A DNA stretch of 64,000 bases, from contig JAUIKS010000008.1 of the NCBI GenBank assembly GCA_030430565.1, positions 175,225 through 239,224 on the forward strand, given 5' to 3'. The stretch is from Polyangia bacterium (GTDB taxonomy: Bacteria; Myxococcota_A; Polyangia; Nannocystales; Nannocystaceae). The position numbers and the translations under genes are program-made. Positions 4,649 through 26,460 of the stretch are shown here, one piece after another. Below the pieces are notes generated by a model. It had not been told where the DNA came from, did not search any database, and was given only the letters and a program-made list of their open reading frames with translations. Position 1 is the first letter of the stretch; each line of letters starts with the position of its first letter.

Positions 4649-5385
4649 GCGCTGCTCCTCGCTCGGATGGGGGCGCCCGTAAGCGGACGTCCTCGGAGCG
4701 GTGACGAATCATATCGCAGCGCCCGGCAGGACGCGACGCGCTCGCTCGCTGCGTGTACACGCGCGCTCGAGCGAGTCCGTGGGGCGCGGACAAACCGCTT
4801 CGCGAGCGCGCGCTCAACCAGCTCGCCGATCCTCCATCAGCTCCGCGCCAACGCGCTCATCAGCGCGAAATCGCGATTAACCGTAAAAACTGCGGTAGAC
4901 CGCCGGGACATGACCGCAAATTCAGCGACGCGCGACGACGCGGCGACGCGAATTCACGCGGAGGACCGCGAGAGCGCTGTGATAGGCTTCGCGGACGCGT
5001 TCGCCGAGGCTCTCGGTGCTCGCCCCGCCCACAACGCGGCGGTCGAGCTCGAGAGAGCCCGGGCTGATCCGCGCCCCCTCCCCCGTACGACCCCCAGCCA
5101 ACACAGCACGACTCTTGCCAGATCTTCCCACAAAGCCCGAGAATCCCAAATCGCAGCCCCACGACACCTGGTTCGACAGCCTGCGTCGCGAGTACGCCGA
5201 GATGAGCCGCGCGCATCACCGGCGACTGCGCGAAGAGCAGTCCTACGAGGGTGACGACTGGGGTGACCCGGACGAGGACGACTGGGGTCGTCAGAAGACC
5301 TGAACCTCGTCTGAAGCGCGCAGCGCCAGAACGCGCGAAGGGCCGGGAAACTCCCGGCCCTCGCTAATTCGAGCGCGCCTCAGCC

Positions 5386-7353
5386 TCAGCCGCGTCGACG
5401 TCGACGCCGGCGCGAGTGACCGACGCCGAGCAAGGTGAACAACGCCAGCGCGCCCCACGGGCCGCTCTGCGGGTTCGCGCGGCAGTCACAGCCGTCGTCG
5501 TCGAGCTGCCCAGCGGTCTCCGTCCCGGCGGGGTCGGTATCCGTCGCGCTCGCGGTGTCGGAGGCGCTCGCGCTCGCCGACGCGTCCGAGTCGCTGTCGC
5601 TGTCGGTCTCGCTGTCGCCGTCACCGTCTCCGTCGCCGTCTCCGTCGCCGTCTCCGTCGCCGTCTCCGTCACCGTCTCCGTCACCGTCTCCGTCACCGCA
5701 GTCGTAGTCCTCGGGACAGTTGAGCTCGTTGGGCTCCGTGCAGATCGCGTTCCCGGCGATGTCGATCGCGCAGTAGCGATACACGAGCTTGAAGGACTCC
5801 GGGATCGTGAACGGGAACACCCACATGTGCTCGCCGTACCAAATGCCGTCGAGCTGAATCCCAGCGTCGTTGATGTCGTCGAGGTCGACCGCGTACTCAA
5901 AGTAGACGCGCTGCCAGTCGTGCGCGTAGTTCACGGTCTTGTTGTCGTGGACGCGCGCGCGCAGGTCGATGGTGTCGCCGACCATCAGCATGTCGTCCGC
6001 GGTCATCACCTGGTAGTTCTGAATAAACGGCACCGCGGTGTCGGCCATCACGTCCTCGCCGAAGAACACGAAGTTCTCGAAGGCGTTGAGGCCGTCGCCG
6101 AGGACCGAGTCGATCTTGTTGTCGCCGTTGAGATCGCCGAGCTCGATGTCGAAGGTCCCGTCCGAGGGGACCTCGCCGAAGGGCAGCTCTCCAGCCGACG
6201 CGAACATCGTGCCCTCGTGCGTCAACAAGCGATCGCCGTCCGCCGCCGCCGAGGCCAGGAACACGTCAGGATCGGTGTCAGAGTCGTAGTCGGCGAACGC
6301 GAGGCCGTAGTCGAAGGTCGCTATGTTGTCGATCGGCTGCCACCACGTCGCGGTCTCGTCGAGGAAGCCGTTGTTGCCGTTGTTGATCAGCACGCGGTTT
6401 CGGTAGCCGCCCATGCCGCCGCCCTCGCCGTCCTGCAGCGAGACGAGATCGAGGAACTCGTCGCCGTCGAGGTCTAGCGCCGTGTACTTGACGCCGTACT
6501 CGTACTGCGGGAGCTGCCCGGGCGTGATGTCGGTGAAGGTCCCGTCGCCGTTGTTCTCGTAGAGCCGGCTGCCGTCGAGGCAGCGCCGGCAGGAGTTCAC
6601 GATGTCGAGGTCGTAGTCGTTGTCGATGTCGACCAGCTCGACGTCCCAGGACCACTTGAGGTTGATATCGGGCATGTTCCCGAGCGTGACGTCGGTGAAC
6701 ACGCCGGTCCCGTCGTTGAGCCAGAGCATCGTCCGGCCGCCCTCGGAGTCCTGCACGTCCACCGGGATCCCGCCCCACTCGGTCAAGACGAGATCGAGGT
6801 CGCCGTCGAGATCGACGTCGCCGAACTCCGCGTCGCCGATGCTGTGGTCCTCCTGCGGGAGGTGCGTGCCGCTCACCTCGGTGAGGTTGAACATGTTGTC
6901 GACGTTGTCCGCGTCGTAGATGAGCAGCCGGCTGCGGCTCGACCAGGTGGCGCCGATGAAGATGTCGAGGAAGCCGTCGCCGTTGACATCACGCGCCTTG
7001 ATCACGCGCCCGGTGTCGGCGATCGCGTTCGGGTCGTCCGGGATCGAGCCGAAGACGTCCACGCTGACGTCGGTGAAGGCGACCAGCGCGGGGTCCGGAT
7101 CCGCGTTGTTCAGGAAGGCCTGGTTCGGCAGCCCCGAGTCCGGGGTCCCCGCCTCGAGGCCGCCGCAGTTGGCGAACAGGATGTCGACCGCGCCGTCTCG
7201 GTTGAGGTCCATGAGCTCGACGTCGGTCGTCCAGAACTCGCCGATGTCCTCGAACTGCTGCGGGGTCGCCTTGACCCACGGCGCCGCGGCGGCCGTCGCC
7301 GGCAGGATCGAGACCACGAGCGCAGTGATGAACAAACTACTGAGACGACGCAT
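5386..7353 (-). CDS. Secreted FG-GAP/VCBS repeat beta-propeller protein with (GD)n linker and MYXO-CTERM sorting signal
   Basis: Signal peptide MRRLSSLFITALVVSILPATAAAAP. Repeated DxNxDGxxD calcium-binding FG-GAP motifs (DLNRDGAVDILFAN, DVNGDGFLDIFIG, DLDGDLDLVLT, DIDNDYDLDIVN). C-terminal (GD)12 then GCDC...hydrophobic...RRRRRRRG tail. Confidence 0.75.
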   Translation of the reverse strand: MRRLSSLFITALVVSILPATAAAAPWVKATPQQFEDIGEFWTTDVELMDLNRDGAVDILFANCGGLEAGTPDSGLPNQAFLNNADPDPALVAFTDVSVDVFGSIPDDPNAIADTGRVIKARDVNGDGFLDIFIGATWSSRSRLLIYDADNVDNMFNLTEVSGTHLPQEDHSIGDAEFGDVDLDGDLDLVLTEWGGIPVDVQDSEGGRTMLWLNDGTGVFTDVTLGNMPDINLKWSWDVELVDIDNDYDLDIVNSCRRCLDGSRLYENNGDGTFTDITPGQLPQYEYGVKYTALDLDGDEFLDLVSLQDGEGGGMGGYRNRVLINNGNNGFLDETATWWQPIDNIATFDYGLAFADYDSDTDPDVFLASAAADGDRLLTHEGTMFASAGELPFGEVPSDGTFDIELGDLNGDNKIDSVLGDGLNAFENFVFFGEDVMADTAVPFIQNYQVMTADDMLMVGDTIDLRARVHDNKTVNYAHDWQRVYFEYAVDLDDINDAGIQLDGIWYGEHMWVFPFTIPESFKLVYRYCAIDIAGNAICTEPNELNCPEDYDCGDGDGDGDGDGDGDGDGDGDGDGDGDGDSETDSDSDSDASASASASDTASATDTDPAGTETAGQLDDDGCDCRANPQSGPWGALALFTLLGVGHSRRRRRRRG

Positions 7354-11258: not shown

Positions 11259-12962
11259 CTAGCCGAGGCCGTACGCACGCACTCGATACTCGTCGAGCAT
11301 TCGCTGCGCGTTGAAGTAGGAGGCCGCGAGCGCGATCGAGCCTCGCATGACCTCCGACCACCCGGGCTTGTTGGTCCGAAACAGCGGCAGGACGACGTCA
11401 TCCAGCAACCGGTAGAGCTGATCGGCCTCGGCCGCGTCCGCGTCATCACCATGGTGGCCGATCGGCTCGATCGCCCAGCCGGTATGACCGATGATGCAGC
11501 CTTCGACCCACCAGCCGTCGCGCGTGCTGAGGTTCGGAACGCCGTTGTGGGAGGCCTTCATCCCGCTTGTGCCCGACGCCTCGAGCGGCGCGCGCGGCGT
11601 GTTGAGCCACAGGTCGACGCCCGAGGTCAGCAACGAGCCGAGGTCCATGTTGTATCCGGGGATGTAGACGAGCTCGATATTCGGCCCGCAGCGCGCTCGC
11701 AGCCGGTGAATCTCGGCGATCAGCCGCTGGCCCTCCATGTCGCGCGGATGCGCCTTGCCGGAGTAGAGCACCTGGAGTTTCCCATGCCGCTCGGCGATGC
11801 TCTGAAGTCGCTCAATGTCACGAAGCAGCAACGTGGGGCGCTTGTAGGCGGTCGCCCGCCGCGCGTAGCCGATGGCGAAGACATCGGGATCGAGCGCGAC
11901 GCCGCACCGCCGCTTCACCTCATCGAGCAACGCGCGCTTGGCCTCGGCGTGCGCGTCGGCGATCTCCGAGAGCGGGATCCGCTCGGCGTGGCGAAGCGCG
12001 TAGTTTTGGTGTCGCCACTGCGGGATCCGGCGATCGAAGAGCGCCCGGAACGGCTCGCTCGTCCACGTCGTCGAGTGCACGCCGTTCGTGATCGCGTGGA
12101 TCTCGTGGCCTGGGAACATCTCGCGCGAGACCTCCCCGTGTCGACGAGCGACGCCGTTGACGAAGCCGCTCAACGCGAGCCCGAGGTGGCTCATGTTCAG
12201 CTCCGCCTGCGCTTGCCCGGGGAGGCGGGAGAACAGCGCGAGTCCAGACTCGCCGAGCACTCGCGTGGCCAGCTCGCGCGGGAATGAGTCGTGACCCGCT
12301 GGCACCGGCGTGTGCGTGGTGAACACGCACGCGTCCCGAACGCTCGCTATCGCGTCGTTCAGTCGCTCGTCACCGAGTTCGTCGAGCTTCACCCGCAGCA
12401 GGTCGAGCGCGAGCAGCGAGGAGTGCCCCTCGTTCATGTGATAGACGCGCGGGGCGAGGCCCAACGCGGCGAGCACTCGACGGCCGCCGATCCCGAGGAT
12501 GATCTCCTGCGCGAGGCGATAGCGCTCATCCCCGCCGTACAGATGATCGGTGAAGCGACGATCGCCCTCGTCGTTTCCGTCGACGTCGACATCGAGATAG
12601 AGGATCGGGATGACGTGACCGTCGATCCCCTTGAGGCTCAGGCGCCACGTCTGGACCTCGACGGTGCGCCCCTCGATCTCCACCGTGACGCGAGGATGCT
12701 GCACTCGCTCCAGATGCTCGGCGGGCGTCCACTTGACCGGCGCGACCTCTTGCTGCCCGTCCGCGTTGATCGACTGCTGAAAGAAGCCCTGGCGATGAAG
12801 CATCGTCACGCCGACCAGCGGCAGCCCCATGTCCGCCGCCGCGCGCAACGTATCGCCAGCGAGCACGCCGAGACCACCCGAGTACGTTGGGATGCGAGCT
12901 GAGAGCCCGACCTCCATGGAGAAGTAGGCGATCTGAACTTGAGGGTTGCTGCTGTCCTGCAT
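11259..12962 (-). CDS. glgP: Alpha-glucan (glycogen/maltodextrin) phosphorylase, GT35, short archaeal-type
   Basis: PLP-binding motif EASGTSGMKASHNG, GT35 conserved blocks. Start set at MQDSSNPQVQIAYFSMEVG (conserved FSMEx N-terminus of short GlgP). Confidence 0.8.
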   Translation of the reverse strand: MQDSSNPQVQIAYFSMEVGLSARIPTYSGGLGVLAGDTLRAAADMGLPLVGVTMLHRQGFFQQSINADGQQEVAPVKWTPAEHLERVQHPRVTVEIEGRTVEVQTWRLSLKGIDGHVIPILYLDVDVDGNDEGDRRFTDHLYGGDERYRLAQEIILGIGGRRVLAALGLAPRVYHMNEGHSSLLALDLLRVKLDELGDERLNDAIASVRDACVFTTHTPVPAGHDSFPRELATRVLGESGLALFSRLPGQAQAELNMSHLGLALSGFVNGVARRHGEVSREMFPGHEIHAITNGVHSTTWTSEPFRALFDRRIPQWRHQNYALRHAERIPLSEIADAHAEAKRALLDEVKRRCGVALDPDVFAIGYARRATAYKRPTLLLRDIERLQSIAERHGKLQVLYSGKAHPRDMEGQRLIAEIHRLRARCGPNIELVYIPGYNMDLGSLLTSGVDLWLNTPRAPLEASGTSGMKASHNGVPNLSTRDGWWVEGCIIGHTGWAIEPIGHHGDDADAAEADQLYRLLDDVVLPLFRTNKPGWSEVMRGSIALAASYFNAQRMLDEYRVRAYGLG

Positions 12963-13054
12963 GTCGAGCGCACGATCATTCCGATGGCGAGCCCGTGGGT
13001 CAAGGCCGCGGACGTGATCTGCCGACGGACGAGCGCGTGCAACCTCGTGCGCGC

Positions 13055-15700
13055 TCAGCCAGCCGTGGTGCGTCTTCGCCGGAGGCCCGCGAGCAGCAGC
13101 AGGCCCACGAGCCACGGCCCGCCCCTGCGCGTCGGCAACGAGGTGCAGCCACAGCCCGACGGATCCTCATCGAGCCCGCTGTCGGTAGCGCCGACCGACG
13201 TCGACGCGGCCGTCGTCACCCCGGGCTGAAATGATGTTGAGCCGGTCTCCGAGCTTGACCCCCCCGTCGACGTCGAGCCGCCGGAGCCCCCCGTCGTCGA
13301 GTCCGTCGTCATCTCGCCGTCGGTCGTGCTCCCGTCGCTCGTAGAGCCCGTCTCGCCGGGCTCCTCGCCGTAGTACGCCCCGCAGGCCGGCTCGTTGAAC
13401 ATGCCCGCTCGATGCGCGAGCGAGAGGGTGTACGCGCCCGCGCCGAAGCCGAGCATCGGCGTGTTGAACTTGTACGTGCCGTCGTTCTCATCGAAGGTCT
13501 CCGCGACCATCAAGAAGTTAGCCAGCGCCTGGTCGAGCACCCAGTTCGTCAAGGCGTCGGCGCGCGCGTGGTCCCCCACCATCCGCTTCGCGATCGAGCC
13601 GCGAAGATCCGTGATCACCCACTCGGCGCTGTCGTAGTCGCTCCCCCACGGGCTGAGGTCCTCGGCGTTCGGGTGATCCCAGCGATCGTCGTTGCGCGAC
13701 CACCCCTCACCGGCGTCGACCGAGAGGTTCGCGTCGAGCCCGTCGAGCGTCGCCTGCGCGATGGCGCCGTTTGGATCGAAGAGCCCCATCGCGATCGCGT
13801 CGAGCACGGCCGCGTCCCAGTAGCCCTCGCCTGCGCCGAGCTCCTCGGTGTTCACCGCGATCGCCCCGTTCCCGTCGGTGAGGCGCTCCGCGATCGCGCC
13901 CCGCAGCGCCTCGGCCGCCTCCTGGTACGCCGTCGCGCGCGCGTCGTCGCCGCGCCGCTCGGCGATCGCGGCGGCGTCACACAAACCACGCGCGGCCGTA
14001 ATATTCGTGAACGCGAAGTGACGCTCGCGACCGTTCCAGTGCGTCTCCCAGATCGACGAGTCTGGCCGCAGGAGGCCCGTCTCCGGCTCTACGAGCGCGA
14101 TGATCACGTCGGCGATCTGCGTGGCGATCATCTCCCAGTTGTCGTCCGCCACGCTCGTGTCGCCGGTCACCTGCTCGTAGACGCGAAGCGCCCAGAGGAA
14201 CAGCCCGAAGCCGTCGAACTCGAGGTTGGGCCCGAAGTCGTTGAAGTCGGTCTCCTCGACGCCGAAGCCGTAGTACCGGACCAGGCTGATCTGGTAGTCA
14301 GGCATGTTGTAGTCGGCGAGCTCATTCCAGTCCTTGAACAGCCCCGACTCCGCGTTCAGGTAGAACATCAGGCCGTCGCGGGCCTCCTGCTGCATGCCCA
14401 GGACCGCCATCCCCGCGACCCCGTAGGCGCCGTCGCGGATCCACGCGTAGGTCCAGTTACCGGGCGGCATGCTCGCCAGCAGCGCCCCTTGAGCGTTGTG
14501 CTGCACGACCGCCGGGAGCGCGTTTGGCTCGAAGCGGGTCCGTCGCGCGTCGCCGTCGTTGGCGAGATGCGGACGCAGGAAGTAGCTCTCCTCCTGAACC
14601 TGTCCCATGCGCAACATCGCCGCCGAGTGCCGCACGAGCATCGCCTCGTCGTCGCCGAGGCCCTCCGGGAGCGTCAGCTGCCCCTGAAAGTCGGCCCAGG
14701 CCGCGAGCTCCGCGTCGACGAGCGCCTTCGCCCCCTGCCCAGCCACGTAGTCCTCGATCCACTGCTGCGCCGCTTCGCCCCCCGCCGGATCGGGGTTGTG
14801 TACGAACGCGATGCCGGCCCACGCCTCCTGCCCCGCGCCGATCGTTTCGAGGTCAAACTGCAGCGCCGCGACCGACGCGTCCGCCGCGTTCGGGGGGGGC
14901 GCGTTGTCGGGTAGATCGCCCAGGGTGTCGTTGACGATGTCGTAGACCGAGACGCCCGGCGCGAAGCCCTTGTGCGCCACCGGCCCGAGCGCGTGGGTCG
15001 CGACCGCGCCCGCGAAGCCGCGCTCGCGGATCACGTCGCCGTCGTCGGTGATCGTCTCGCCGTTCTCGCCGATATCCTCCCCGACCTCCCACGGCGAATT
15101 GGCGCGCCCGTAGCCGAGATGAAAATTCGCCAGCGAGAACGCTTGTACGCCGCTCAGCGGCTGGTTTGAGTTATTGCGCACGCGCAGCGCGAGCACGCCC
15201 GCGCCGTGGGGCACGTCGCGCGGGGAGAACACGAAGGTCGTGAACTCGATGGCGCCGGCGTGCTGCACCATCGCCACAACCCCGGTCCCGCCCGAGGTAT
15301 CGTCTGTGTAGCCGACGTATCCGCTCGCGTCGTAATCAACAGGGAGCTCGGGGAGCCAGAATTGCTCGCCCGCGACGCGTACGCCGAAGTACGCGTCGTA
15401 CAAGAGGTCTCGGGTGTAGACCGCCGCGAACTGCCCGCCATCCCAAATCTCTTCGTCGTTCTCGTCGAGCTGCGGCTCCTCCGCCGCGAACAGGTGCTCG
15501 CGAAACTGCTCGAGCTTCCCGGTCTCGAGGTTGAGCAGACCCGCGCCGTGGCCGCTCGAGAACGGCAAATCGAAGCGTGTTTGCTGCACAGGTGCAGCTG
15601 CGTGCGCGTACATCGGTTCCGAGAGCGTCGTCGCGGCGCCGAGCGCGAGCGTGAGCGTGACGCGAGCTGGCGATGCGAGGAGATACGTGCACACGCGCAT
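13055..15700 (-). CDS. Secreted GH15-family glucoamylase/glucodextranase-like protein with MYXO-CTERM
   Basis: Signal peptide; (alpha/alpha)6 GH15-like segment ...SIWETHWNGRERHFAFT... C-terminal S/T/G-rich linker then CGCTS...LVGLLLLAGLRRRR tail. Confidence 0.65.
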   Translation of the reverse strand: MRVCTYLLASPARVTLTLALGAATTLSEPMYAHAAAPVQQTRFDLPFSSGHGAGLLNLETGKLEQFREHLFAAEEPQLDENDEEIWDGGQFAAVYTRDLLYDAYFGVRVAGEQFWLPELPVDYDASGYVGYTDDTSGGTGVVAMVQHAGAIEFTTFVFSPRDVPHGAGVLALRVRNNSNQPLSGVQAFSLANFHLGYGRANSPWEVGEDIGENGETITDDGDVIRERGFAGAVATHALGPVAHKGFAPGVSVYDIVNDTLGDLPDNAPPPNAADASVAALQFDLETIGAGQEAWAGIAFVHNPDPAGGEAAQQWIEDYVAGQGAKALVDAELAAWADFQGQLTLPEGLGDDEAMLVRHSAAMLRMGQVQEESYFLRPHLANDGDARRTRFEPNALPAVVQHNAQGALLASMPPGNWTYAWIRDGAYGVAGMAVLGMQQEARDGLMFYLNAESGLFKDWNELADYNMPDYQISLVRYYGFGVEETDFNDFGPNLEFDGFGLFLWALRVYEQVTGDTSVADDNWEMIATQIADVIIALVEPETGLLRPDSSIWETHWNGRERHFAFTNITAARGLCDAAAIAERRGDDARATAYQEAAEALRGAIAERLTDGNGAIAVNTEELGAGEGYWDAAVLDAIAMGLFDPNGAIAQATLDGLDANLSVDAGEGWSRNDDRWDHPNAEDLSPWGSDYDSAEWVITDLRGSIAKRMVGDHARADALTNWVLDQALANFLMVAETFDENDGTYKFNTPMLGFGAGAYTLSLAHRAGMFNEPACGAYYGEEPGETGSTSDGSTTDGEMTTDSTTGGSGGSTSTGGSSSETGSTSFQPGVTTAASTSVGATDSGLDEDPSGCGCTSLPTRRGGPWLVGLLLLAGLRRRRTTAG

Positions 15701-15760
15701 GACGGGAATCTACTCCGAAAAGCCGAGCAAAGGGTGAGCGGGTTTTTGTATCGTGTGGGC
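15701..15760. promoter_or_regulatory. Divergent intergenic region between GH15 gene and amylase gene (shared control region presumed)
   Basis: 60-bp gap between divergently oriented starts. No consensus promoter elements identified by eye. Confidence 0.2.
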
Positions 15761-18154
15761 ATGCGCTCGCTCTCGGCTTTCTTGGTGCTCTCGGCCCTCA
15801 CCGCGCTCTCGTGCAGCACTGGAGATCCGGGGGCCACCGAGACCGACGGATCGGGCCTGACATCGCAGACCTCCGAGAGCGGACCCATGCAGGTCAGCGA
15901 GTCCGCGAGCAGCACAGGCGCGGGCAGCTCGACCACGGGCGGGCCCGGGACGACCGACAGCGGCGAGACAGACTCCACGACCACCGATCCAGGCACCACC
16001 ACCGGCACGACGTCAGACGCCGAGTGCCCGACCGAGTTCCGCTTCAAGCTGCCCAACAACGGCGCGAACCCGCGGGTCGCCGGCGCCTGGCACGGCTTTG
16101 ACCTCGCGACCGCGACGCCGCTCGAGGGACCCGACGGCGACGGCTACTACCGCGGGACCGTCGAGCTCGCGCCGGGGCTGTGGGCCTACAAGATCGTCTA
16201 CGACCAGGGCGGCGAGGCGCAGTGGATCTTCGATCCAGAGCAGGCGCGGCGCACTTACTCCGACGAGGTCGAGAACTCCGCCGTGCTCGTCCGCGACTGC
16301 GCGCTGCCGACGCTCGCGGTCGAGAGCAGCGCGGCCCAGAGCGACGGCTCGTTCACCGCCGCGCTCACGTACCTCGACGGCGTCCACGAGGACGGGCCCG
16401 ACCCCGGGGCGTACACGGCGACGCTCGACAGCGAAGGCGACGTGACGCCGCTGACCGACCAAGAGTTTCAGGTCGACGCCGACACGGGCGACGTGTCACT
16501 CTCGCTCGCGTCGCTCGCGAAGGGCAAGTACACGATCCGGTTGACGGCCGCTGACAACGCAGGGCGCGAGTCCGAGCAGGTCCGCCTCGTGTTCTGGATC
16601 GAGGACGAACCCTACGATTGGGACGGCGCGCTCATCTACATGGTGATGACCGACCGCTATCGCGACGGGGACCCCGGCAACAACGGCGGCCCGACCCCCC
16701 CGGCGGATCCCCGCGGCGACTGGCAAGGCGGCGACTTCGAAGGCCTGCGGCAGAAGATCGCCGACGGCACGCTGGACCAGCTGGGCGTACGCGCGATCTG
16801 GTTGACCCCGTTCCAGACCAACCCGTCGGGCCCCTACATCGCCTCGGACGGCGTGCACCACGTGACCGGCTACCACGGGTATTGGCCGATCGCGGCGCGC
16901 GAGGTCGACCCGCGACTGGGCGGCGCCGAAGGCCTGAAGGCGCTCGTCAAAGAGGCCCACGCCCACGGGATCAGGATCCTCCAAGACTACGTGATCAACC
17001 ACGTCCACGAGGATCACGAGTACATGGCGGAGCACCCAGATTGGTTCCGCACGGGCTGCGTCTGCGGGACGCAGGACTGCGACTGGACCGGGCACGCGCT
17101 CGACTGCATGTTCGCGCCCTACCTCCCCGACATCGATCACCGCGTGCGCGAGGCGAACGCGGCGTTCGTCGAGGACGCGGTCTGGTGGCTCGATGAATTC
17201 AACATGGACGGGCTGCGCGTCGACGCGGTCAAGCACGTCGAGGAGGCGGCGACGCGCAACCTCGCCGCAGCCGTGCGCGAGGGCTTCGAGGCCGCCGGCA
17301 CGCGGTACTTCCTGATGGGCGAGACCGCGATGGGCTGGGCCGACTGCGCCGACCCGTGCAACGACGAGAACTACGGGACCATCTCAAAGTACGTCGGCCC
17401 CCTCAACCTCGACGGTCAATTCGACTTCGTGCTCTACCACGCGGTCTCCTACAACACCTTCGCGTACGGCAGCAAGGGGATGCTGCACGCGGCGTACTGG
17501 TTTGAGCACGGGCTCGAGAAGTGGCCGGCGGGCTCGGTGATGACGCCCTACATCGGCAGCCACGACACGCCGCGCTTCGTCTCGCTCGCCGACTACCGCG
17601 GTCAAGATCCGGAGCACGATCCGGGCGTCGCCCACAGCCAGTGGGACAACGTGGCTCAAGAGCCAGGTGAAGCCGAGCCGTACCGACGCGCGCGCGTCGG
17701 CTTCGCGTGGCTGCTCGGGCTGCCCGGCGCGCCGCTGCTCTACTACGGTGACGAGTACGGGCAGTGGGGCGGCGCCGACCCGAACAACCGCCAGATGTGG
17801 CGCGCGGAGGCGCAGCTCAGCGCGGACGAGCTCGAGACCCTCGAGTTCGTCCGCACGCTCGGCGCCGCGCGCAGGGACATCCCCGCGCTCCGCTCCGGAG
17901 CGTACGTCGCCCTCGACGCGACGGAGGACAGCATCGTGTACGGGCGCCACCTCGAGGGCGGCGACTCGGCGATCGTCGCCGTCAACCGCGCCGGCGCGCC
18001 GCAGCCGGTCACGGTCCAGGTGAGCGCGTCGCTCGAGCTCGAGCCCGACGTGGTGCTGAAGGACGCGCTCGGCGGTCCCGACGTAACCGTCTCGATCACC
18101 GGGAACGCGAGCTTCAGCATCCCGGCGAGCGGCGCGGTCATCCTCTCCCAATGA
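15761..18154 (+). CDS. GH13 alpha-amylase family lipoprotein with N-terminal CBM48/glycogen-binding-like domain
   Basis: Start MRSLSAFLVLSALTALSC (lipobox). CBM48-like FRFKLPNNGANPRVAGAWHGFD...YYRGTVELAPGLWAYKIVYD. GH13 catalytic blocks DGVHHVTGYHGYW, GIRILQDYVINHV, GLRVDAVKHV, FLMGE, GSHDTPRF. Confidence 0.8.
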   Translation: MRSLSAFLVLSALTALSCSTGDPGATETDGSGLTSQTSESGPMQVSESASSTGAGSSTTGGPGTTDSGETDSTTTDPGTTTGTTSDAECPTEFRFKLPNNGANPRVAGAWHGFDLATATPLEGPDGDGYYRGTVELAPGLWAYKIVYDQGGEAQWIFDPEQARRTYSDEVENSAVLVRDCALPTLAVESSAAQSDGSFTAALTYLDGVHEDGPDPGAYTATLDSEGDVTPLTDQEFQVDADTGDVSLSLASLAKGKYTIRLTAADNAGRESEQVRLVFWIEDEPYDWDGALIYMVMTDRYRDGDPGNNGGPTPPADPRGDWQGGDFEGLRQKIADGTLDQLGVRAIWLTPFQTNPSGPYIASDGVHHVTGYHGYWPIAAREVDPRLGGAEGLKALVKEAHAHGIRILQDYVINHVHEDHEYMAEHPDWFRTGCVCGTQDCDWTGHALDCMFAPYLPDIDHRVREANAAFVEDAVWWLDEFNMDGLRVDAVKHVEEAATRNLAAAVREGFEAAGTRYFLMGETAMGWADCADPCNDENYGTISKYVGPLNLDGQFDFVLYHAVSYNTFAYGSKGMLHAAYWFEHGLEKWPAGSVMTPYIGSHDTPRFVSLADYRGQDPEHDPGVAHSQWDNVAQEPGEAEPYRRARVGFAWLLGLPGAPLLYYGDEYGQWGGADPNNRQMWRAEAQLSADELETLEFVRTLGAARRDIPALRSGAYVALDATEDSIVYGRHLEGGDSAIVAVNRAGAPQPVTVQVSASLELEPDVVLKDALGGPDVTVSITGNASFSIPASGAVILSQ

Positions 18155-18936: not shown

Positions 18937-21333
18937 TCAGCGCTTCCACCACGGTTTATCGGTCGTGCTGGGCTCGCTCTCCACGTCGTCCACCTTCATG
19001 CCGGACGAGCTGAAGTCGACATCGATCTCGTCCGAGCGTGATCCAGAATCCTCGACATCCACGTCGACATCGACATCGACATCGACATCGACATCGACCG
19101 ATGAGCTGTCCAGAGACCCGAGATCGATCTCCACGCTCGTGATGGGATCGCTCTGCTTCGGCGTAAACGGAGACGGGCGCGCGGGGCTCTGAAACGGGTT
19201 CTGGGCCGGCGGCGCGAACGGCGAGCGCGCTGCGCGGTTCGGCACGGCGCGCGACGCGGACGACATCCGTCGGTTCTCGGCTTCCTTAAATCGGTTCGCC
19301 AGGGTCTTGATGAAGGCGCCCATCCACGGCTTCATCGCGTCAAACTCGCGCTCGATCACGTCCCCGGTGACCATGATCAGGGTTGTCTCGGTGACTGCGA
19401 CCACGCTCGCGGTCCGCGGCGACTCGGCGAAGATCGCGGTCTCGCCGAAGACATCACCTGGGCCGAGCATTCTCAAAGAGACGCGCTCGCCGTTAACAGA
19501 CTTGTAGACCTCGAGCCGCCCGGCCTCGACGATGTAGGCCGCGTCCCCGACCTCTCCCTCGCGGATGATGTGCGTCCCCTGCTTGTACGTGATCGTGGGG
19601 AAGTTCCCCCCGCCGCGAATGAGACGCTGAAGATCCTGCCGGAGCTCGTCTGTCGATTGGTAGCGCTCGGCGGGCTTGCGCGAGAGCGCCTTCATCGTGA
19701 TGCGCACGATCTCGCGCGGGTACATCGTGCCGCCGACGATCTCGCTCGGCGCGACGATCTCGGCGCGCTGCGCCATCCTTAAGGTCTCGATGTTCGAGTT
19801 CCCGCGGTACGGCGGCCTGCCGGTCAACACCTCGTAGAGGATCGCCCCGATCGCGAAGATGTCAGAGCGTTGGTCCAGCTCCGCGTGACGACCACGAGCT
19901 TGCTCTGGAGACATGTAGCCCGGCGTGCCGAAGACGAGGCCCTCGGTCTCCTCCGGCGGCAGCTCGGGGAGCGGATCGAAGACGATGTTCCGCCCCTCCC
20001 CCTCCACTTCGAAGAGGCGCGCGCCGCCCCAGTCCATCAGGTAGACCTGGCCGTAGTCGCCGACCATGATGTTCTCGGACTTGATGTCGCAGTGCAGCAC
20101 CCCGCGAGAGTGGGCGTAGCCGAGCGCGTCGCAGACCTTGATCAGGATCTCGAGGATGTTGAGCAGCCGGTCGTGATCGCGATACTTGGAGTGCCGGATC
20201 AGCTCAGCGAGGCTGCGCCCGTCGATCAGCTTCATCGTGAAGAACAGCCGCCGCTTCGCGTCGAGCCCGAAGTCGTGAACAGGGACGATGTTCGGGTGCG
20301 CGAGCTGCCCCGTGATCTGCGCCTCGCGAATGAAGCCGCGGACGAGCATCGGCTGTTGATATGTCCGATCGTGCAGGAGCTTAATTGCGCAGCGACGCTG
20401 CAGCGCGCGGTCGAGCACGACGCCGATCGCGCCGGTTCCTCCGCGCGCGATCTCTCCCTCGTAGCGCAGGCGCTCGCCGCTCTGCGCGAACACGGCGCGG
20501 ATCATCTCTTGGATGCGTGGGTGAAACGAGGCGATCAACGCCGCGCGCTTAGCCGCGCGCTCCGCCCGGGACGAACGGCGGATCCCCGAGTGCTCGGCCA
20601 GGTCGTGAGGCGTCGGGATCGCGCGCGAGCTGACCGCGGGAGAGTCGGCGATGTCTCGCGCCCTCGCGGAGCTGGAGGTCGCGCTCGCCTTTGACGGCGC
20701 GGGGGGGCGAGACGTCGCCCCTGGTGCCGCCAGCGCTGACGAGGTGGGGCGCGCCCCCGGAGCGGGGATCACAGGGAGCGAATCACTCGGCGTGATCGTG
20801 TCGGGCAGCGTCGTGCTCGGCGAGATGTTGACCGGGACCGACTCGTCGAGGATCGGCGAGCCGCGGGTCGACGAGCTAGGAGTCAACGGCTCCTGCACAT
20901 CGCGCGAACGTCTCCCAGCGACCGAGGGCGCTGGCGGGATAGCGGAGGACGGGGTCCCGCGCGGCGGCGTCGACGGCACGCCCAGGATCGGCGGCGTCGC
21001 GCCAGAATCATCAAGACCGCTCCCCGCGAACGGCGGCGGCGGGAGCAACGGCGCGGACGAGCTGGAGCCGCTGGGTGGAGGTCCCGCGATCGGCGGCGGC
21101 GGCGATGACGACGGAGGGACGATCGGCGGAGCCGGGGCGACCTTGGAGCTCCCCGAAGCGCGTGCCCCTTGAACCACGGGAGGCGGGGGGACGGCCCCGC
21201 GCTTTCGAGTCCGGCTCGGCACGACCGGCGGCGCGACGACGCGTGAGCCGGATCGACCCGCGTCGCGCTCATCACGACTCGTCGCGGATTCGGTCGACGG
21301 CGGTCCGCCCGCGCGCTTTTTCGAGTCGCCCAT
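18937..21333 (-). CDS. Ser/Thr protein kinase with C-terminal cyclic-nucleotide-binding (CAP-family) domain
   Basis: Pro/Ser-rich N-terminal about 300 aa. Kinase core (AIKLL, HSRGVLHCDIKSENIMV, DWGGARL, GTPGYMSPEQ). cNMP-binding block HIIREGEVGDAAYIVEAGRLEVYK...LGPGDVFGETAIF...RTASVVA. (VD)n acidic tail. Confidence 0.8.
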   Translation of the reverse strand: MGDSKKRAGGPPSTESATSRDERDAGRSGSRVVAPPVVPSRTRKRGAVPPPPVVQGARASGSSKVAPAPPIVPPSSSPPPPIAGPPPSGSSSSAPLLPPPPFAGSGLDDSGATPPILGVPSTPPRGTPSSAIPPAPSVAGRRSRDVQEPLTPSSSTRGSPILDESVPVNISPSTTLPDTITPSDSLPVIPAPGARPTSSALAAPGATSRPPAPSKASATSSSARARDIADSPAVSSRAIPTPHDLAEHSGIRRSSRAERAAKRAALIASFHPRIQEMIRAVFAQSGERLRYEGEIARGGTGAIGVVLDRALQRRCAIKLLHDRTYQQPMLVRGFIREAQITGQLAHPNIVPVHDFGLDAKRRLFFTMKLIDGRSLAELIRHSKYRDHDRLLNILEILIKVCDALGYAHSRGVLHCDIKSENIMVGDYGQVYLMDWGGARLFEVEGEGRNIVFDPLPELPPEETEGLVFGTPGYMSPEQARGRHAELDQRSDIFAIGAILYEVLTGRPPYRGNSNIETLRMAQRAEIVAPSEIVGGTMYPREIVRITMKALSRKPAERYQSTDELRQDLQRLIRGGGNFPTITYKQGTHIIREGEVGDAAYIVEAGRLEVYKSVNGERVSLRMLGPGDVFGETAIFAESPRTASVVAVTETTLIMVTGDVIEREFDAMKPWMGAFIKTLANRFKEAENRRMSSASRAVPNRAARSPFAPPAQNPFQSPARPSPFTPKQSDPITSVEIDLGSLDSSSVDVDVDVDVDVDVDVEDSGSRSDEIDVDFSSSGMKVDDVESEPSTTDKPWWKR

Positions 21334-21537
21334 ACAGCGCCGTATTCAGCCCAGCGGGCCGCATCGTCGTTCTACCACATTCCCCGGCTCCAGCCCCTGA
21401 TGCACGCGATCTCGATGGGCGAGTGCGCGCTTGCTGCTGCATCGAAAGACAGGTGTGTCGAGGTCGGAGCGAGTTCGAATTGGCCGCCGGGCCGCGCGTG
21501 TCCCCGATAGGTGTGAACAGGCCGGTCAGCCCCCGAA

Positions 21538-24500
21538 TCAGTCGCGCGCCGTGAACTCGAGCAAGCGCTCGACGAGCTGCGAGAGCGTCGCGCTGGAGCG
21601 CGCCAGCTGCTCGTCGCTCTCGGCATTCGCGATCGCGCTGAGCGGCGCGCGAAGCTCTCGCCCCACGGTAGCGAGGAATACGCTCTTCGCTCGACACGCG
21701 GCGATCGCCTGGCGGCGCGCGTCTTCGAGCGACGCCGCGCGGGCCCGCAGCCGCCGCGTGTGCGCGAGGTGACCCGTCACGTCCGAGACGAGCACGTACT
21801 GTCGTTCGCGCGGGCCCTCCCGCCGCGCGCGTCGACCTGTGAAGGTGAGTTCGAACGCGCGCCTAGGTCCGCTGCGCGGCTCGACGTGGAGCGTCGCCGT
21901 GCGAATTTTCCCGTCGAGCGCTCGGTGGAGGGTGGCGTCGAGGCGCTCTCGGACCGCGCCCCACCACTCCGCCGCGCTCCTCCAGGTCGACGTGAGACCG
22001 TCGAGCGTCTCGTCGAAGCCCGTGAGCTCGCCGTCGGTGTCGACCGTGATCACCGCGATCCCGAGCGCCCGCGTCGCGCTCTCGAACAGCTCCGTCGCCT
22101 CGCGACGCGCGGCCGCTGCGGTCAGCTCCCGCCGGATGAGGCGCGCCGACTCAATCGCGAGCGCGATGTAGATCGAGAGCGACTGCAGGACGCGCTCGTC
22201 GTCCCTCGTGAACATCCCGGCCGCGAGTCGATTGTCGAGATAGACGACCCCGATCGCGCGCTCACCTAGGTTCACCGGGGCCGCGATCACGCTCCGGAGC
22301 CCCAGCACGGACTCGCTGCGAGCGCCGCCGACGCTCCCGAAGGAGCGCTCGTCCGCGGCGCTGAGAAACAGCGAGCGCTGCTCGGCGAACACGAGCGAGA
22401 CGACCGACTCATCGACGCGCGCCTCGGGCGGCAGCGGCCCCCCGCTCGCGCCGCGGCCGGCGACTCGACGCGGCGTTGAACCTGTCTCATCTACCAGGTA
22501 GAGGAAGCCGCGCTCGGCGCCGAGGAAGCCGAGCAGCACGTCGAGGATCAGCTGCGCTTGATGCTCGAGCGTGCTCGAGCGCGCGGCCGAGAGACTGAGC
22601 TCGAGCACGGTCTCGTGGAAGCGCGCGGGGCTGGCGTGAAGCGGGAGCCCGAGCGGGTGCTCCGGCGACTCCCGGTCGCTCGAGAGCGCCTCGGTCCCCG
22701 TGACGCGAGCGGGACGGGGCGGCGGCGCGGCCGCTTGAAACTCTTGCTGGATCCACGCCGCGCGGGTCGCCATCCCGTGGCGAGCCGCGAGCGCGTGCGC
22801 GCGGGCGCGGGCGCGGGCCGCCGCCTCGAGCCGCCCCGTCGTTGTGTGGAGGTGGGCGCGCACGCGCGCGGCCTCGCACAACGCCCGCGGGCTGTCGATC
22901 CGGAGCGCGAGCGTCTCGGCGCGCTCGACCCACGGCTCGACGCGCGCGACCTGCCCTGTCAGCAGGCAGTAGGTCGCCTCCATCACGGCCCACTGGGCCT
23001 CGATGATCGGCACGTCGCTGGCGTCCCGAACGCGATCGAGCAGGGCCCGCGCCCGCGCACGCTCGGCGCCCCGAAGCGGTCGCGCGGCGCGACGACGCAG
23101 CGCGCGGAGCAGGACCCCCTGCGCCGCCGCGATGAAGCCGTGCCGGCCGTCGACCGTGAGCCGCCGCGGGTTGAGGTCGAGGTCGAGGAACTGCTGGACG
23201 CGACGATCGAAGAGCGCGTCGAGCTCGCCGGTCTCGACGAAGATCATCAGCTCGCAGCTGAGCAGGCTGACGCGGACGTAGATCTCGGAGGCGTAGGGGC
23301 GCATCGCCGCGCGCGCGCGCTTGAGCTGCTGCAGCGCGGCGCCCCCGAGCCCGCGCCCGGCGAAGACGCACGCGGCGTAGATCGTGACGACGTGGGTCTG
23401 CGCCCGACGAGCGTCGGCGTTGATCAGGAATCGACGGCACACGCGCTCCGCCCAGCCCCGCGCCTCCTCGACGTAGCCGCGATCGTACAGGTTCCACATC
23501 AGCGCGTAGACGATGTTGCCGTAGGCGTCCGTCTCGAGGCGGTGCTCGCCGATCGCCATGGCCTCGAGGTACGCCGCGAGCGCCGGCCGCGAGTCACCGA
23601 GCAGCTCGAGGCCGTATCCGCGGTACCCGATCGCGCGGGCGAGCGCGCTGCGGTCGCCGAGCGAGCGCGCCATCGCGATGGAGCGATCGACGTAGCGGAG
23701 GAAGCGTCGCCGCAGCTTGAGGACCGACATCACCATCGCGTAGTTGGTGTAGGCGAGCACCTGCGCGCGGTCGGGCGTGGGGCGCTCGGCGAGCTGCAGC
23801 GTGCGGACGGCTGACTGAACGAGCAGGCCGCCGCGCATCGAGAAGTAGGCCGCGTGATCGACGACGTACAGCAAGCGAAGCATGATTCGGCGGCGCTCGG
23901 CGGCGGACGGGATGTCGCGGACGCGCGGGCGCGCGGGCGCGATCAACCCCGCGACCGCGCTGATGAGGCCGCGCGCCGAGTCCGAGGGCGGCGTCTCGCC
24001 GAGCGCGGCGAAGCCCCGGTTGACCTCGGCCATCGCCTCCTCGAGGAAGAAGCCGGCGACCTTGACCTCGGCGACGCTCGCGTGGATCGACGCGCGTCGC
24101 AGCGAGGTCTTCGCGCGCGCGAGCGCCTCCGCGAACGCTCGATCCGCGTCCTCGATGCGCCCGACGAGCCCGCAGACCTCTCCGCGGAGCTCAAAGAACG
24201 CGCAGTCGAGCCCGACGGCGGCGACGCGCGCGGCCGCCTCCGCGCGCTCGAGGTAGCGATGGGCGTCGCGCGCCGCGTGGCGATCAAACGCGAGCTGCCC
24301 GGCGCGGAGGTTGCTCTCGAACACGCGCGCGTCGCTCTGCACCGACGCGCCGGCGGCGTTGTAGTGACGCGCGATGGCGAAGATCACGTCAAGGTCGGCG
24401 TCGGCGCCTCCAGCCTCGAGCGCGCGCGCGCAGCGGGCGTGCATCCGCGCCGCCTCGTCGCGGTCGAGCCGAGCGAGCAGCGCCTCGTGGAGCCGCTCGT

Positions 24501-26460
24501 CGACGAAGGCGTAGCGCCGCTGGCCGACGCGCTCGATCACCCGCGCCTCGACGCCGCGCGCGAGCGCCCGAGAGATCTCGTCCGCGGGGCGCTCGCTGAG
24601 CTCGGGCAGCAGGTCCTCTTCGAAGCGGCCGCCGATCACCGCCGCCGCCGTCAGCACGTAGCGCGCCTCGTCCTCGAGCGCGACCAGCCGCTGGGTGAGG
24701 ATCTCGAGCACGTCGCCGGGCAGGTCGAGGGTCTCGAGGCGCTCGCGATCGAAGACCCACTCGCCCCAGTGAGGTCGCAGCGCCCCCGCGTCGAGCATCG
24801 CGTGGACGTACTCGCAGATCTCGACGGGGATGCCGCCCGTCCGGGCCGCGATGTGCTCGATGACGCTGGGCGCGAGCGCGCCGCCGAGCAAGCGCTGGAT
24901 CAGCCGCGAGATGTCGTCGACTTCGAACGGCGCGAGGCGAATGGTTCGCGTCGCGAGCTGGCTGATCGGGGTCTCGACGAGCGCGGCGCGGGGATCCTCG
25001 CGCGCCCCCAGCACGACGCAGAGGCGCGCGTCGCCGGCGGCCAGCGCGAGCCGCCGCAGCACCTGCACGCTCGACCAGTCGATCCACTGCGCGTCGTCGA
25101 GCACGAGCACGAGCGGCCGCGCCCCGTCGCCGACCAGCTGGAAGAACTCCGCGATCGCGGCGAGAAAGACATCGTCGGAGCTCGACTCGCGGACCTCCCG
25201 CTCGCGCGCGAACGCGGAGAGCCGCGGGCAGAAGCGCGTGAGCAGCCCCGTTCGCTCAGCGGTCGCGCGCTCGAGCGCCCCGCGCGTCGCGTCGCGCTCC
25301 TCGCCCCGCATGCGGTCTAATTCGCGGAGCGTCCGCTCGACCGCGCGACGCAGCGGCGAGAACGGGCTGCGCTCGCGTTGCTCGCACGCGCCGACCATGA
25401 CCAGCGCGCCGCTCGAGCGCGCGCGATCACAAAATTCACGCAGGACGCGGGTCTTGCCGACGCCGGCGCGACCGCGCAGCAGCACCGTGTCAGAGAGGCC
25501 GACCGAGGCGCGCTCGACCGCCTGGGAGAGCGCCCGCAGCTCCGCGCGTCGGCCGACGAGCGGCAGGGCGCTTGAGGTCTCATAGGACAGGTTGACGCCG
25601 CCCAAGCTCGGCGCCTCCCCCCGCCCCGCCCGCTCGTTGAGCTCCGGGATCCGCTCGAGGTCCTCGATCAGCGCGACGGCCGACTCGTAGCGCTGGTCGG
25701 GGTCCTTCGCCAGCAGCCGCGCGATGATCGCCGAGAGGGCCCACGTGACGTCTGGCGCGAAGGCCTGGACCCGCGGCGGCGCGTCGCGGGTGTGCATCTT
25801 CATCAGCTCGCCGACGTCGTTGGACAGAAACGGCGGTCGCCCGGTCGCGCACTCGAACAGGCTGACGCCGAGCGAGTAGAGATCCGCGCGACCGTCGACC
25901 GGGCGCGGGAGCATCCCCGTCTGCTCGGGCGCCGCGTAGAGATAGGTGCCCACGACGGCGCGCCCGGCCTGCAGCTCGCTCGTGTGCGTGGCGAGGCCGA
26001 AGTCGACGAGCGCGGCGCCCCCCCGCGCCGGCAGGATGATGTTGCGCGGCTTGACGTCGCAGTGCACGACGCCGCGACGATGGGCGACGTGCAGCGCGCG
26101 GGCGAGGCTGCGCGCGAGCCCGATGATGCGCGCCTCGTCGAGCGGCCCAGCGCGCAGCACGTCGGCGAGCGTGGGTCCCTCGATGATGTCCATCACGAGG
26201 AACACGCGCCCCTCGCTCTCGCCGATCATGTGGATCTTGGCGAGCCCGGGATCGTCGAAGCACGCGAGCAGCGAGGCCTCGCGCCGAAACTGCCGCTGGA
26301 CCTCGGGCTCGAGGCTGCGGCGCTGAACCTTGATCGCGTAGCGCCGGCCCTTGTGAACGCCGCTGAAGACGCGGCTGAAGCTGCCCTCGCCGAGCTCCCG
26401 CAGCAGCGTGATCCCGAACCCCTCCAGATCGGGCGGCGGGCTTCGCGTGGCCTTCGCCAT
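21538..26460 (-). CDS. Multidomain signalling protein: Ser/Thr kinase - AAA/STAND ATPase - TPR-like - GAF - PAS-like - His-less HisKA remnant
   Basis: Kinase motifs (AIKVQRR, HRRGVVHCDVKPRNIIL, DFGLATH). P-loop LLRGRAGVGKTRVL. GAF region LYLVDETG...IAAPVNLGERAIGVVYLDN. Terminal FLATVGRELRAPLSAI resembles HisKA H-box (SHELRTPL) with His->Arg and no HATPase_c domain. Confidence 0.8.
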   Translation of the reverse strand: MAKATRSPPPDLEGFGITLLRELGEGSFSRVFSGVHKGRRYAIKVQRRSLEPEVQRQFRREASLLACFDDPGLAKIHMIGESEGRVFLVMDIIEGPTLADVLRAGPLDEARIIGLARSLARALHVAHRRGVVHCDVKPRNIILPARGGAALVDFGLATHTSELQAGRAVVGTYLYAAPEQTGMLPRPVDGRADLYSLGVSLFECATGRPPFLSNDVGELMKMHTRDAPPRVQAFAPDVTWALSAIIARLLAKDPDQRYESAVALIEDLERIPELNERAGRGEAPSLGGVNLSYETSSALPLVGRRAELRALSQAVERASVGLSDTVLLRGRAGVGKTRVLREFCDRARSSGALVMVGACEQRERSPFSPLRRAVERTLRELDRMRGEERDATRGALERATAERTGLLTRFCPRLSAFAREREVRESSSDDVFLAAIAEFFQLVGDGARPLVLVLDDAQWIDWSSVQVLRRLALAAGDARLCVVLGAREDPRAALVETPISQLATRTIRLAPFEVDDISRLIQRLLGGALAPSVIEHIAARTGGIPVEICEYVHAMLDAGALRPHWGEWVFDRERLETLDLPGDVLEILTQRLVALEDEARYVLTAAAVIGGRFEEDLLPELSERPADEISRALARGVEARVIERVGQRRYAFVDERLHEALLARLDRDEAARMHARCARALEAGGADADLDVIFAIARHYNAAGASVQSDARVFESNLRAGQLAFDRHAARDAHRYLERAEAAARVAAVGLDCAFFELRGEVCGLVGRIEDADRAFAEALARAKTSLRRASIHASVAEVKVAGFFLEEAMAEVNRGFAALGETPPSDSARGLISAVAGLIAPARPRVRDIPSAAERRRIMLRLLYVVDHAAYFSMRGGLLVQSAVRTLQLAERPTPDRAQVLAYTNYAMVMSVLKLRRRFLRYVDRSIAMARSLGDRSALARAIGYRGYGLELLGDSRPALAAYLEAMAIGEHRLETDAYGNIVYALMWNLYDRGYVEEARGWAERVCRRFLINADARRAQTHVVTIYAACVFAGRGLGGAALQQLKRARAAMRPYASEIYVRVSLLSCELMIFVETGELDALFDRRVQQFLDLDLNPRRLTVDGRHGFIAAAQGVLLRALRRRAARPLRGAERARARALLDRVRDASDVPIIEAQWAVMEATYCLLTGQVARVEPWVERAETLALRIDSPRALCEAARVRAHLHTTTGRLEAAARARARAHALAARHGMATRAAWIQQEFQAAAPPPRPARVTGTEALSSDRESPEHPLGLPLHASPARFHETVLELSLSAARSSTLEHQAQLILDVLLGFLGAERGFLYLVDETGSTPRRVAGRGASGGPLPPEARVDESVVSLVFAEQRSLFLSAADERSFGSVGGARSESVLGLRSVIAAPVNLGERAIGVVYLDNRLAAGMFTRDDERVLQSLSIYIALAIESARLIRRELTAAAARREATELFESATRALGIAVITVDTDGELTGFDETLDGLTSTWRSAAEWWGAVRERLDATLHRALDGKIRTATLHVEPRSGPRRAFELTFTGRRARREGPRERQYVLVSDVTGHLAHTRRLRARAASLEDARRQAIAACRAKSVFLATVGRELRAPLSAIANAESDEQLARSSATLSQLVERLLEFTARD

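Follow-up and report, generated by a model that had tools for sequence, protein, structure and literature searches.

A giant signalling protein encoded in a 64,000-nucleotide stretch of the genome of a Polyangia bacterium of the family Nannocystaceae (contig JAUIKS010000008.1, assembly GCA_030430565.1; the whole stretch is called the window below) carries at its C-terminus what looks like the dimerisation domain of a histidine kinase with an arginine in place of the phospho-accepting histidine. The question raised by this locus is what such a tail can still do in a protein that begins with a Ser/Thr kinase. The open reading frame (ORF) 21538..26460 on the minus strand codes for a single protein of 1640 amino acids (aa), the translation of which ends in ...RRQAIAACRAKSVFLATVGRELRAPLSAIANAESDEQLARSSATLSQLVERLLEFTARD*. 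The product is a cytoplasmic protein in which a Hanks-type Ser/Thr kinase is followed by an NTPase of the STAND (AAA_16) type, by GAF and PAS-like domains and by a two-helix hairpin. Judging from the sequence comparisons, the hairpin is the decayed dimerisation and histidine phosphotransfer (DHp, HisKA) domain of a class-I histidine-kinase transmitter. We consider it reasonably probable that this stub caps the GAF-PAS sensor in a structural and probably dimerising role and that the Hanks kinase is the only catalytic output of the protein.

Arginine at the phospho-acceptor position of a shortened hairpin

An earlier reading of the window, made from its sequence alone and called here the original prediction, had described the tail as an H-box with a His-to-Arg change and had recommended its alignment to the HisKA profile (PF00512). 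This profile gave a partial match that stayed below its cut-off of 26.9 bits: the full-length protein scored 14.0 bits and its last 80 aa, taken separately, scored 22.1 bits (E 1.6e-4), and the match spanned only aa 1592-1612, which correspond to profile positions 2-22 of 66. When the tail was compared by phmmer with the histidine kinases of the PDB, FLATVGRELRAPL was paired with FLANMSHEIRTPL (7z8n) and with FLAVMNHEMRTPM (ERS1, 4mt8). A BLASTP alignment of the last 110 aa with the intact relative P0005 (E 3e-15) ran through the end of the PAS-like domain, the H-box and the second helix of the hairpin (alpha2), and it placed GRELRAPL opposite SHELRTPL, with R opposite H. The family alignments, which are collinear, concur that Arg1601 occupies the histidine position, and this residue aligns with the His of 7z8n, ERS1, P0005, P0012, P0250 and P0258. 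In the profile search with the PAS-like/HisKA module, the close relatives P0002 and P0004 scored 235 and 247 bits, respectively, in agreement with homology to genuine HisKA. These comparisons indicate that the remnant around Arg1601 is homologous to HisKA and is not a chance motif; the predicted substitution was borne out by the PDB, P0005 and family alignments alike.

The protein ends 39 aa past Arg1601, and the family alignment contains no other histidine of this protein within aa 1568-1640. The histidines 1564 and 1567 of the tail were considered as substitute phospho-acceptors and rejected, as they lie at the junction of the PAS-like domain with the helix and are not conserved. The stub cannot act as a histidine kinase, because Arg stands at the His position and HATPase_c is absent; it is capable of neither autophosphorylation nor His-Asp phosphotransfer. 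To this extent the original view that the remnant is at most a dimerisation or docking helix holds, a structural or docking role being the maximum that can be read from the sequence.

The structure of aa 1431-1640 was predicted with AlphaFold2 (AF2) for the monomer, using an alignment of 11 sequences. The mean predicted local distance difference test score (pLDDT) of the model was 87.7, and that of the hairpin block was 86-97. A helix leaving the GAF domain is followed in the model by a five-stranded alpha/beta domain, a 50-aa helix (alpha1, aa 1562-1611), a 4-aa turn (aa 1612-1615) and a 24-aa helix (alpha2, aa 1616-1639). The turn coincides with a gap in the alignment, where the protein has ~14-17 aa fewer than the intact kinases. 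Compared with the four-helix bundle of a DHp domain, the hairpin is modelled with high pLDDT and keeps its hydrophobic core, but it is shorter by these ~14-17 aa, and the model is that of a monomer. According to this model, the tail is a shortened DHp hairpin.

The Pfam PAS models gave no match even at E <= 1. Meanwhile, a Foldseek search of the PDB with the model returned PAS-DHp kinases and PAS/LOV domains (WalK, YF1 4gcz, Brucella LOV-HK, FixL and NifL) with E values of 2e-6 to 6e-4, and aa ~1466-1561 are predicted to have the PAS fold, namely a five-stranded antiparallel sheet with flanking helices. The PAS domain named in the original prediction is thus right structurally (AF2 and Foldseek), though undetected by the Pfam PAS models, and the order given there, STK-AAA-GAF-PAS followed by a HisKA remnant, agrees with Pfam and with AF2/Foldseek.

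Loss of the catalytic domain in a small clade

Pfam found no HATPase_c domain in the ORF. For a search in every frame, the catalytic and ATP-binding (CA) domains of P0005, P0007, P0012 and P0121 were compared by tblastn with the 64-kb window, and no CA similarity was found; the best match (E 0.27) lay inside the same ORF. The same search on the loci L002, L003, L004, L006 and L007 found nothing after the stop codon in any of them, and the sole genuine CA match there belonged to a separate membrane histidine kinase upstream in L007. A class-I histidine kinase has its CA domain C-terminal to the DHp; the window protein ends where alpha2 ends.

That the protein stops exactly at a domain boundary is the sole ground for suspecting that an error of sequencing or assembly or a recent frameshift or nonsense mutation has cut the kinase short, or that its CA domain is encoded just downstream, and no evidence supporting such an artefact or split gene was found. 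An independent assembly (Logan) contains an identical protein, and the relatives from four other assemblies terminate at the matching alignment position. Within the 204 bp that separate the gene from its downstream neighbour, no frame shows CA similarity, a scan of this gap for terminators and promoters found none, and the downstream ORF 18937..21333 holds only Pkinase and cNMP_binding domains. In addition, the common hairpin deletion and the drift of the H-box mark the event as old. This explanation, to which we give next to no probability, is refuted by these tests. Neither of the two results that the original prediction had named as fatal to itself, a different residue at the H-box position or a HATPase_c hidden by a frameshift, was obtained, and its claim that the domain is missing was confirmed.

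The full-length search returned thousands of Pkinase-AAA_16-GAF proteins of ~1600-1850 aa, the C-terminal outputs of which vary across the family (GGDEF, SpoIIE/PP2C, HisKA with HATPase_c, and HATPase_c_2). The nearest relatives, P0002 (70-72% identity, 1637 aa), P0003 (44%, 1640 aa) and P0004 (43%, 1636 aa), have no recorded HisKA or HATPase_c, and the next nearest, P0005 (34%, 1838 aa), has both. The PAS-like module with its W-x5-WW motif was found in six of the 120 best full-length matches (P0001-P0005 and P0012; P0001 is identical to the window protein), and in P0005 and P0012 the sequence SHELRTPL is followed by ~165-170 aa of CA domain. The giants that keep an intact kinase (SHELRTPL and HATPase_c) are P0005, P0012, P0250 and P0258, and the PAS-like/HisKA/HATPase_c cassette is shared by shorter proteins of ~400-1000 aa. 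The NCBI label of the protein of the P0002 cluster is "AAA family ATPase".

An exhaustive profile search over 1.84 billion representatives yielded 40 proteins with the complete module. The canonical His is present in 37 of the 40, and in 35 of these 37 the DHp is followed by 149 aa or more, so that the intact state is the usual one among carriers of the module; the remaining two, P0242 and P0243, keep the His with only 48 and 34 aa after the DHp and look cut or frameshifted. The three representatives without the His are P0002, which stands for the cluster of the window protein, P0004, and P0268, an N-terminally cut fragment of a fifth lineage that is related to P0003 and P0004. Short HisKA-only proteins were among the matches of a word-indexed profile search with the C-terminal alignment, in which ordinary histidine kinases predominated.

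The truncated lineages are therefore five in number (the window protein, P0002, P0003, P0004 and P0268), with identities of 43-72%. They have in common the gap of ~14-17 aa at the hairpin tip, and their C-termini coincide with the end of alpha2 or lie a few residues from it. All five lack the His, the residue at this position being R, R, R, G and A, and the intact relatives have H. An H-box can still be made out in the window protein and in P0002 (F-L-A-x-V-G-R-E-L-R-A-P-L), but not in P0003, P0004 and P0268. Since the position has drifted in this way, Arg is not a selected replacement, and the idea of a conserved, meaningful substitution was rejected; the survey of H versus R among the orthologues, suggested in the original prediction, showed that R is not fixed. 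Three of the five lineages were traced to metagenome-assembled genomes (MAGs) of Myxococcales or Polyangia by a scan of genome collections with the full-length clade alignment; L006 (Myxococcales) is the MAG that corresponds to P0002, and L007 (Polyangia) the one that corresponds to P0004. A Nannocystaceae MAG (L011) contained only an N-terminal fragment (aa 10-266), which is too partial to be placed in the clade.

Because all five lineages share the hairpin-tip gap and end near the end of alpha2, the loss of the CA domain and the deletion of the tip are one old event in this small clade. The alignments give good support to a history in which a dual Ser/Thr-His kinase was stripped of the CA domain, the tip of the hairpin and the phospho-accepting His. 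The ancestor would have been a kinase of the HstK type bearing the PAS-like/HisKA/HATPase_c cassette. In the ancestor of the Polyangia/Myxococcales clade the CA domain and ~14-17 aa of the hairpin tip were lost, and afterwards the phospho-acceptor His and other surface residues of the H-box drifted, the His becoming Arg in the window protein.

The dual Ser/Thr-His kinases HstK/Alr2258 and Pkn40/Pkn41 of Anabaena PCC 7120 were described as "dual protein kinases" by Krupa & Srinivasan 2005 (PMC1262709, PMC2176072). As in the window protein, a single polypeptide there begins with a Hanks kinase and a GAF sensor and continues into the transmitter of a histidine kinase (PMC1262709, PMC2176072), and P0005, P0012, P0250 and P0258 have this full architecture plus the PAS-like module of the window protein. 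In contrast, the window protein has no HATPase_c and no phospho-acceptor His, its DHp is ~14-17 aa shorter, and it can be at most a single kinase; moreover, it comes from Myxococcota MAGs and not from cyanobacteria. With a degenerate HisKA and no HATPase_c, the window protein is a descendant of the HstK-type family and not a functional member of it. With its Pkinase-AAA_16-GAF paralogues it shares a common N-terminal scaffold of ~1450 aa (30-36% identity over 85-90% of the query), but where the paralogues have an enzymatic C-terminal output (GGDEF, SpoIIE/PP2C or HATPase_c_2), it has a non-catalytic stub after the PAS-like domain.

The Ser/Thr kinase of the clade also differs from that of the intact relatives. 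The catalytic loop HCDVKPRN (26041-26064 on the minus strand, aa 133-140) is of the non-RD type, and its His-Cys-Asp is invariant in four sequences of the truncated clade, whereas HRD stands in P0005, P0007 and P0012. The disappearance of the histidine-kinase output is thus accompanied by a switch of the Ser/Thr kinase to another class.

The PAS-like module with the W-x5-WW motif was seen in ~40 representative proteins, P0012 and P0121-P0130 among them, and in many of the ~40 it carries a CPxC insert, possibly a metal or redox site. The insert is lacking in the truncated clade and in P0005. Stand-alone kinases of ~400 aa consist of the PAS-like module and the transmitter alone.

Constraint on the stub and its possible roles

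The ratios of nonsynonymous to synonymous substitution rates (dN/dS, omega) were estimated by the method of Nei and Gojobori (NG86) on codon alignments, with 95% bootstrap intervals. Between the window protein and P0002, the omega of the hairpin (aa 1587-1640) was 0.34 (0.14-0.74) and that of the rest of the protein was 0.36; taken separately, alpha1 gave 0.28 (0.13-0.55) and alpha2 gave 0.93 (0.36-2.96). Between P0003 and P0004, the tail had an omega of 0.47 (0.22-0.90) compared with 0.06 for the rest of the protein, and their DHp remnants are 39% identical in amino acids compared with 86% for the whole proteins. The fraction of bootstrap replicates in which the omega of the stub was at least 1 was 0.003 in one pair and 0.007-0.011 in the other.

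The residues of the hairpin fall into two kinds. Ten columns (1596, 1597, 1599, 1603, 1607, 1610, 1619, 1626, 1629 and 1630) hold hydrophobic residues in each of the five truncated lineages and likewise in all four intact kinases, except for 1619 (three of four). Meanwhile, the positions S1600, H1601, T1605, P1606 and N1608, which are invariant in the intact kinases, are variable in the truncated ones. This pattern suggests that the catalytic and surface constraint has been lost and the packing constraint has been retained.

We propose that the stub would act as a short coiled-coil or four-helix-bundle cap that holds the GAF-PAS sensor pair dimeric and in register, and that catalytic output would be left to the N-terminal Ser/Thr kinase alone, with the STAND NTPase as its gate. 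The hairpin might instead be a pure vestige, a harmless leftover tail that has not yet been deleted and contributes nothing, and we regard this as a possible but clearly less likely explanation. It would fit the omega of alpha2, the relaxed and strongly diverged tails of P0003 and P0004, the drift at the His position together with the unrecognisable H-box of three lineages, and the C-terminal ends, which vary by a few residues among the lineages. On the other hand, the reading frame and a nearly equal length are kept in five lineages despite dS values of ~0.5 to > 1, the bootstrap places the omega of the stub below 1 in both pairs, the ten core positions stay hydrophobic in every lineage while the surface varies, and AF2 predicts the hairpin with high confidence.

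Several of the same observations weigh against the dimerising cap. The omega of alpha2 is indistinguishable from neutral. Because the tails of P0003 and P0004 are so little conserved, with an omega that exceeds the value for the remaining protein ~8-fold, the stub is only weakly constrained, and this constraint may be fading. The NG86 estimates are rough, given a G+C content at third codon positions (GC3) of 92% and a stub of only ~50 codons. Finally, the GAF domain, the PAS-like domain and the long helices could dimerise without the stub, and the AF2 model is that of a monomer.

The original prediction had gone further and called the tail a clear case of a two-component module repurposed inside a Hanks kinase. 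We do not follow it on this point: the fusion itself is ancestral and published, and what has changed here is decay. Repurposing would mean a new selected function; the evidence extends to the retention of a foldable hairpin core, in a stub that is relaxed ~8-fold in the sister pair.

A different role is conceivable for the stub as the adaptor of a pseudo-histidine kinase, which would form a heterodimer with the DHp of a genuine kinase or bind a response regulator, for example presenting the regulator as a Ser/Thr substrate in a DivL-like manner. We consider this improbable. It draws on the sub-clade of P0003 and P0004, where a complete membrane histidine kinase is encoded immediately upstream of the truncated giant gene, in divergent orientation (5284-6801 on the minus strand of L007 and 3-734 on the minus strand of L003). 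The adjacent kinase of L007 matches HisKA with 68 bits and HATPase_c with 99 bits, and its DHp-CA region is 43% identical to that of P0012; this kinase and its counterpart in L003 could be partners of the giant protein, or the adjacency could be coincidental. The window gene, in contrast, has no adjacent histidine kinase, its upstream neighbour coding for an esterase-family protein, and the 33 ORFs scanned in the 64-kb window contain no HisKA, HATPase_c or Response_reg domain, in addition to the absence of a CA match by tblastn. We also considered the L007 kinase as the detached half of the giant protein and rejected this, as it possesses a transmembrane N-terminus of its own along with a complete DHp and shows no similarity to P0004.

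The residues that follow the His position speak both ways with regard to an adaptor: 13 of the 15 residues after it are identical between the window protein and P0002, compared with 72% for the whole proteins, but they are not conserved across the five lineages. The deletion of the tip also counts against an adaptor, as it removes part of the DHp surface that contacts the regulator in complexes of histidine kinases with response regulators.

DivL offers a precedent for an adaptor, its kinase core serving as a sensor of DivK~P (PMC4211667). Like the stub, DivL has a core without a phospho-acceptor His (Tyr in DivL), and this core is put to a use other than phosphotransfer (PMC4211667), as may be the case here by analogy. 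However, DivL retains a complete DHp and CA and its role is proven experimentally, whereas in the window protein the CA domain is gone and the DHp is shortened. The His-less mini-DHp as a selected adaptor that joins the Hanks/STAND sensor to two-component signalling, be it through the DHp of a kinase such as the L007-type neighbour or through a docked regulator phosphorylated on Ser/Thr, is considered unlikely. If true, a decapitated transmitter would have become a fixed link between Hanks-type and His-Asp signalling. Should the stub bind a kinase or a regulator, it would be a natural example of wiring between the Hanks-type and two-component systems.

The phosphotransferases Spo0B and ChpT have a dimerisation domain that is a DHp-derived hairpin; they have no kinase activity of their own and act in phosphorelays. 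Both retain a phosphorylatable His and a degenerate CA-like domain. The window stub shares the DHp-derived hairpin with them and has neither the His nor the CA-like domain. Incomplete histidine kinases (iHKs), which are those without HisKA or HATPase in surveys of the P2CS type, are a recognised category (bioRxiv 10.64898/2026.02.27.708494). The proteins of this preprint keep the HATPase and have no recognisable HisKA, whereas the window protein is the reverse, a HisKA remnant without HATPase and without His, inside a giant Hanks kinase.

The intact and truncated relatives form a clear ancestor-descendant series of transmitter decay in a multidomain kinase. In the order that the comparisons suggest, the CA domain and the hairpin tip went first and the catalytic surface of the H-box followed, and the buried core of the hairpin persists; this is relevant to the question of which DHp parts have a structural and which a chemical purpose. 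For annotation, such proteins are not to be counted as histidine kinases. As a whole, this is an ordinary outcome of domain loss in a large paralogous family, a tidy case of decay that is not a new mechanism and opens no long-standing question.

Domain layout and gene neighbourhood

The coordinates of the features of the locus are collected in Table 1. The surrounding region has a G+C content of ~72%, and the GC3 of the ORF, 0.92, matches the expectation for a real gene in the source genome.

Table 1. Features of the ORF and of its downstream flank, in window coordinates.
Feature	Position	Strand	Evidence
Whole ORF, 1640 aa: Hanks kinase, STAND NTPase, GAF, PAS-like domain, mini-DHp	21538..26460	-	Identical public protein P0001
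Ser/Thr protein kinase domain, aa 19-259	25684..26406	-	Pfam Pkinase, E 2.5e-40
AAA_16 (STAND-type) NTPase, aa 300-483	25012..25563	-	Pfam AAA_16, E 5.7e-26
Long region between AAA_16 and GAF, aa 484-1250, without Pfam domain match	22711..25011	-	Aligns lengthwise with the family
GAF domain, aa 1298-1437	22150..22569	-	Pfam GAF_3, GAF and GAF_2, E 7.5e-13 to 4e-10
PAS-like domain, aa ~1466-1561, with W-x5-WW motif	21778..22065	-	AF2 fold and Foldseek matches
Long helix alpha1, aa 1562-1611, predicted signalling helix continuing into the first DHp helix	21628..21777	-	AF2 model residues 132-181, block pLDDT 92-97
H-box remnant FLATVGRELRAPL, aa 1595-1607	21640..21678	-	HisKA profile, PDB and family alignments
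Codon CGA, Arg1601, at the phospho-accepting His position	21658..21660	-	Alignments to intact kinases
Helix alpha2 of the predicted shortened DHp hairpin, aa 1616-1639	21544..21615	-	AF2 model residues 186-209
Intergenic gap after the stop codon, 204 bp	21334..21537	-	No CA remnant, no terminator-like site
Downstream co-oriented gene: Pro-rich N-terminus, Pkinase, cNMP_binding	18937..21333	-	Pfam; neighbour kept in L006

The kinase domain scored 139 bits against the Pfam Pkinase cut-off of 31.7, and its motifs are complete for a Hanks-type Ser/Thr kinase: GEGSFSRV, AIK (Lys44), the non-RD loop already described, DFG (aa 153-155) and APE (aa 177-179). The AAA_16 domain scored 92.4 bits against a cut-off of 32.6 and has the Walker A motif GRAGVGKT from aa 330 and the Walker B motif LVLVLDD from aa 450, as expected for a STAND-type NTPase. 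The kinase and Walker motifs are invariant in the four-sequence alignment of the clade, and both domains look active, as far as the motifs can tell. The region of aa 484-1250 is included in the alignments with relatives, which cover 85-99% of the query, and the NCBIfam model TOMM_kin_cyc matches at aa 292-739; by analogy with other STAND proteins, we assume a helical or TPR-like arm here.

The downstream gene for the Hanks kinase with a cyclic nucleotide monophosphate (cNMP)-binding domain also follows the orthologue in the Myxococcales MAG L006 (12257-14605 on the plus strand), and it does not in L007. The same downstream neighbour in L006 suggests that the two kinases are a conserved gene pair in this sub-clade.

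Besides a nucleotide cyclase and a second cNMP-binding protein, three further Hanks kinases are encoded among the scanned ORFs of the window. Genes for cyclic-nucleotide and Ser/Thr signalling are numerous in it; on the minus strand they include 44208-44831 (POPDC-like cNMP-binding protein), 59270-60577 (adenylate/guanylate cyclase) and 60633-63938 (Pkinase-TPR protein). A Hanks kinase fused to a Macro (ADP-ribose-binding or -hydrolysing) domain is encoded at 45573-47369 on the same strand. The ORF at 47530-51816, also on the minus strand, codes for an unusual 1428-aa fusion of HIT, PLD-like, ResIII/helicase and Peptidase_S24 domains, and an additional helicase-C ORF (53022-54035) lies close to it. 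Further downstream of the giant gene, a glycogen/starch metabolism cluster at 11259-18154 codes for a carbohydrate phosphorylase, a GH15 glucoamylase-like protein and an alpha-amylase.

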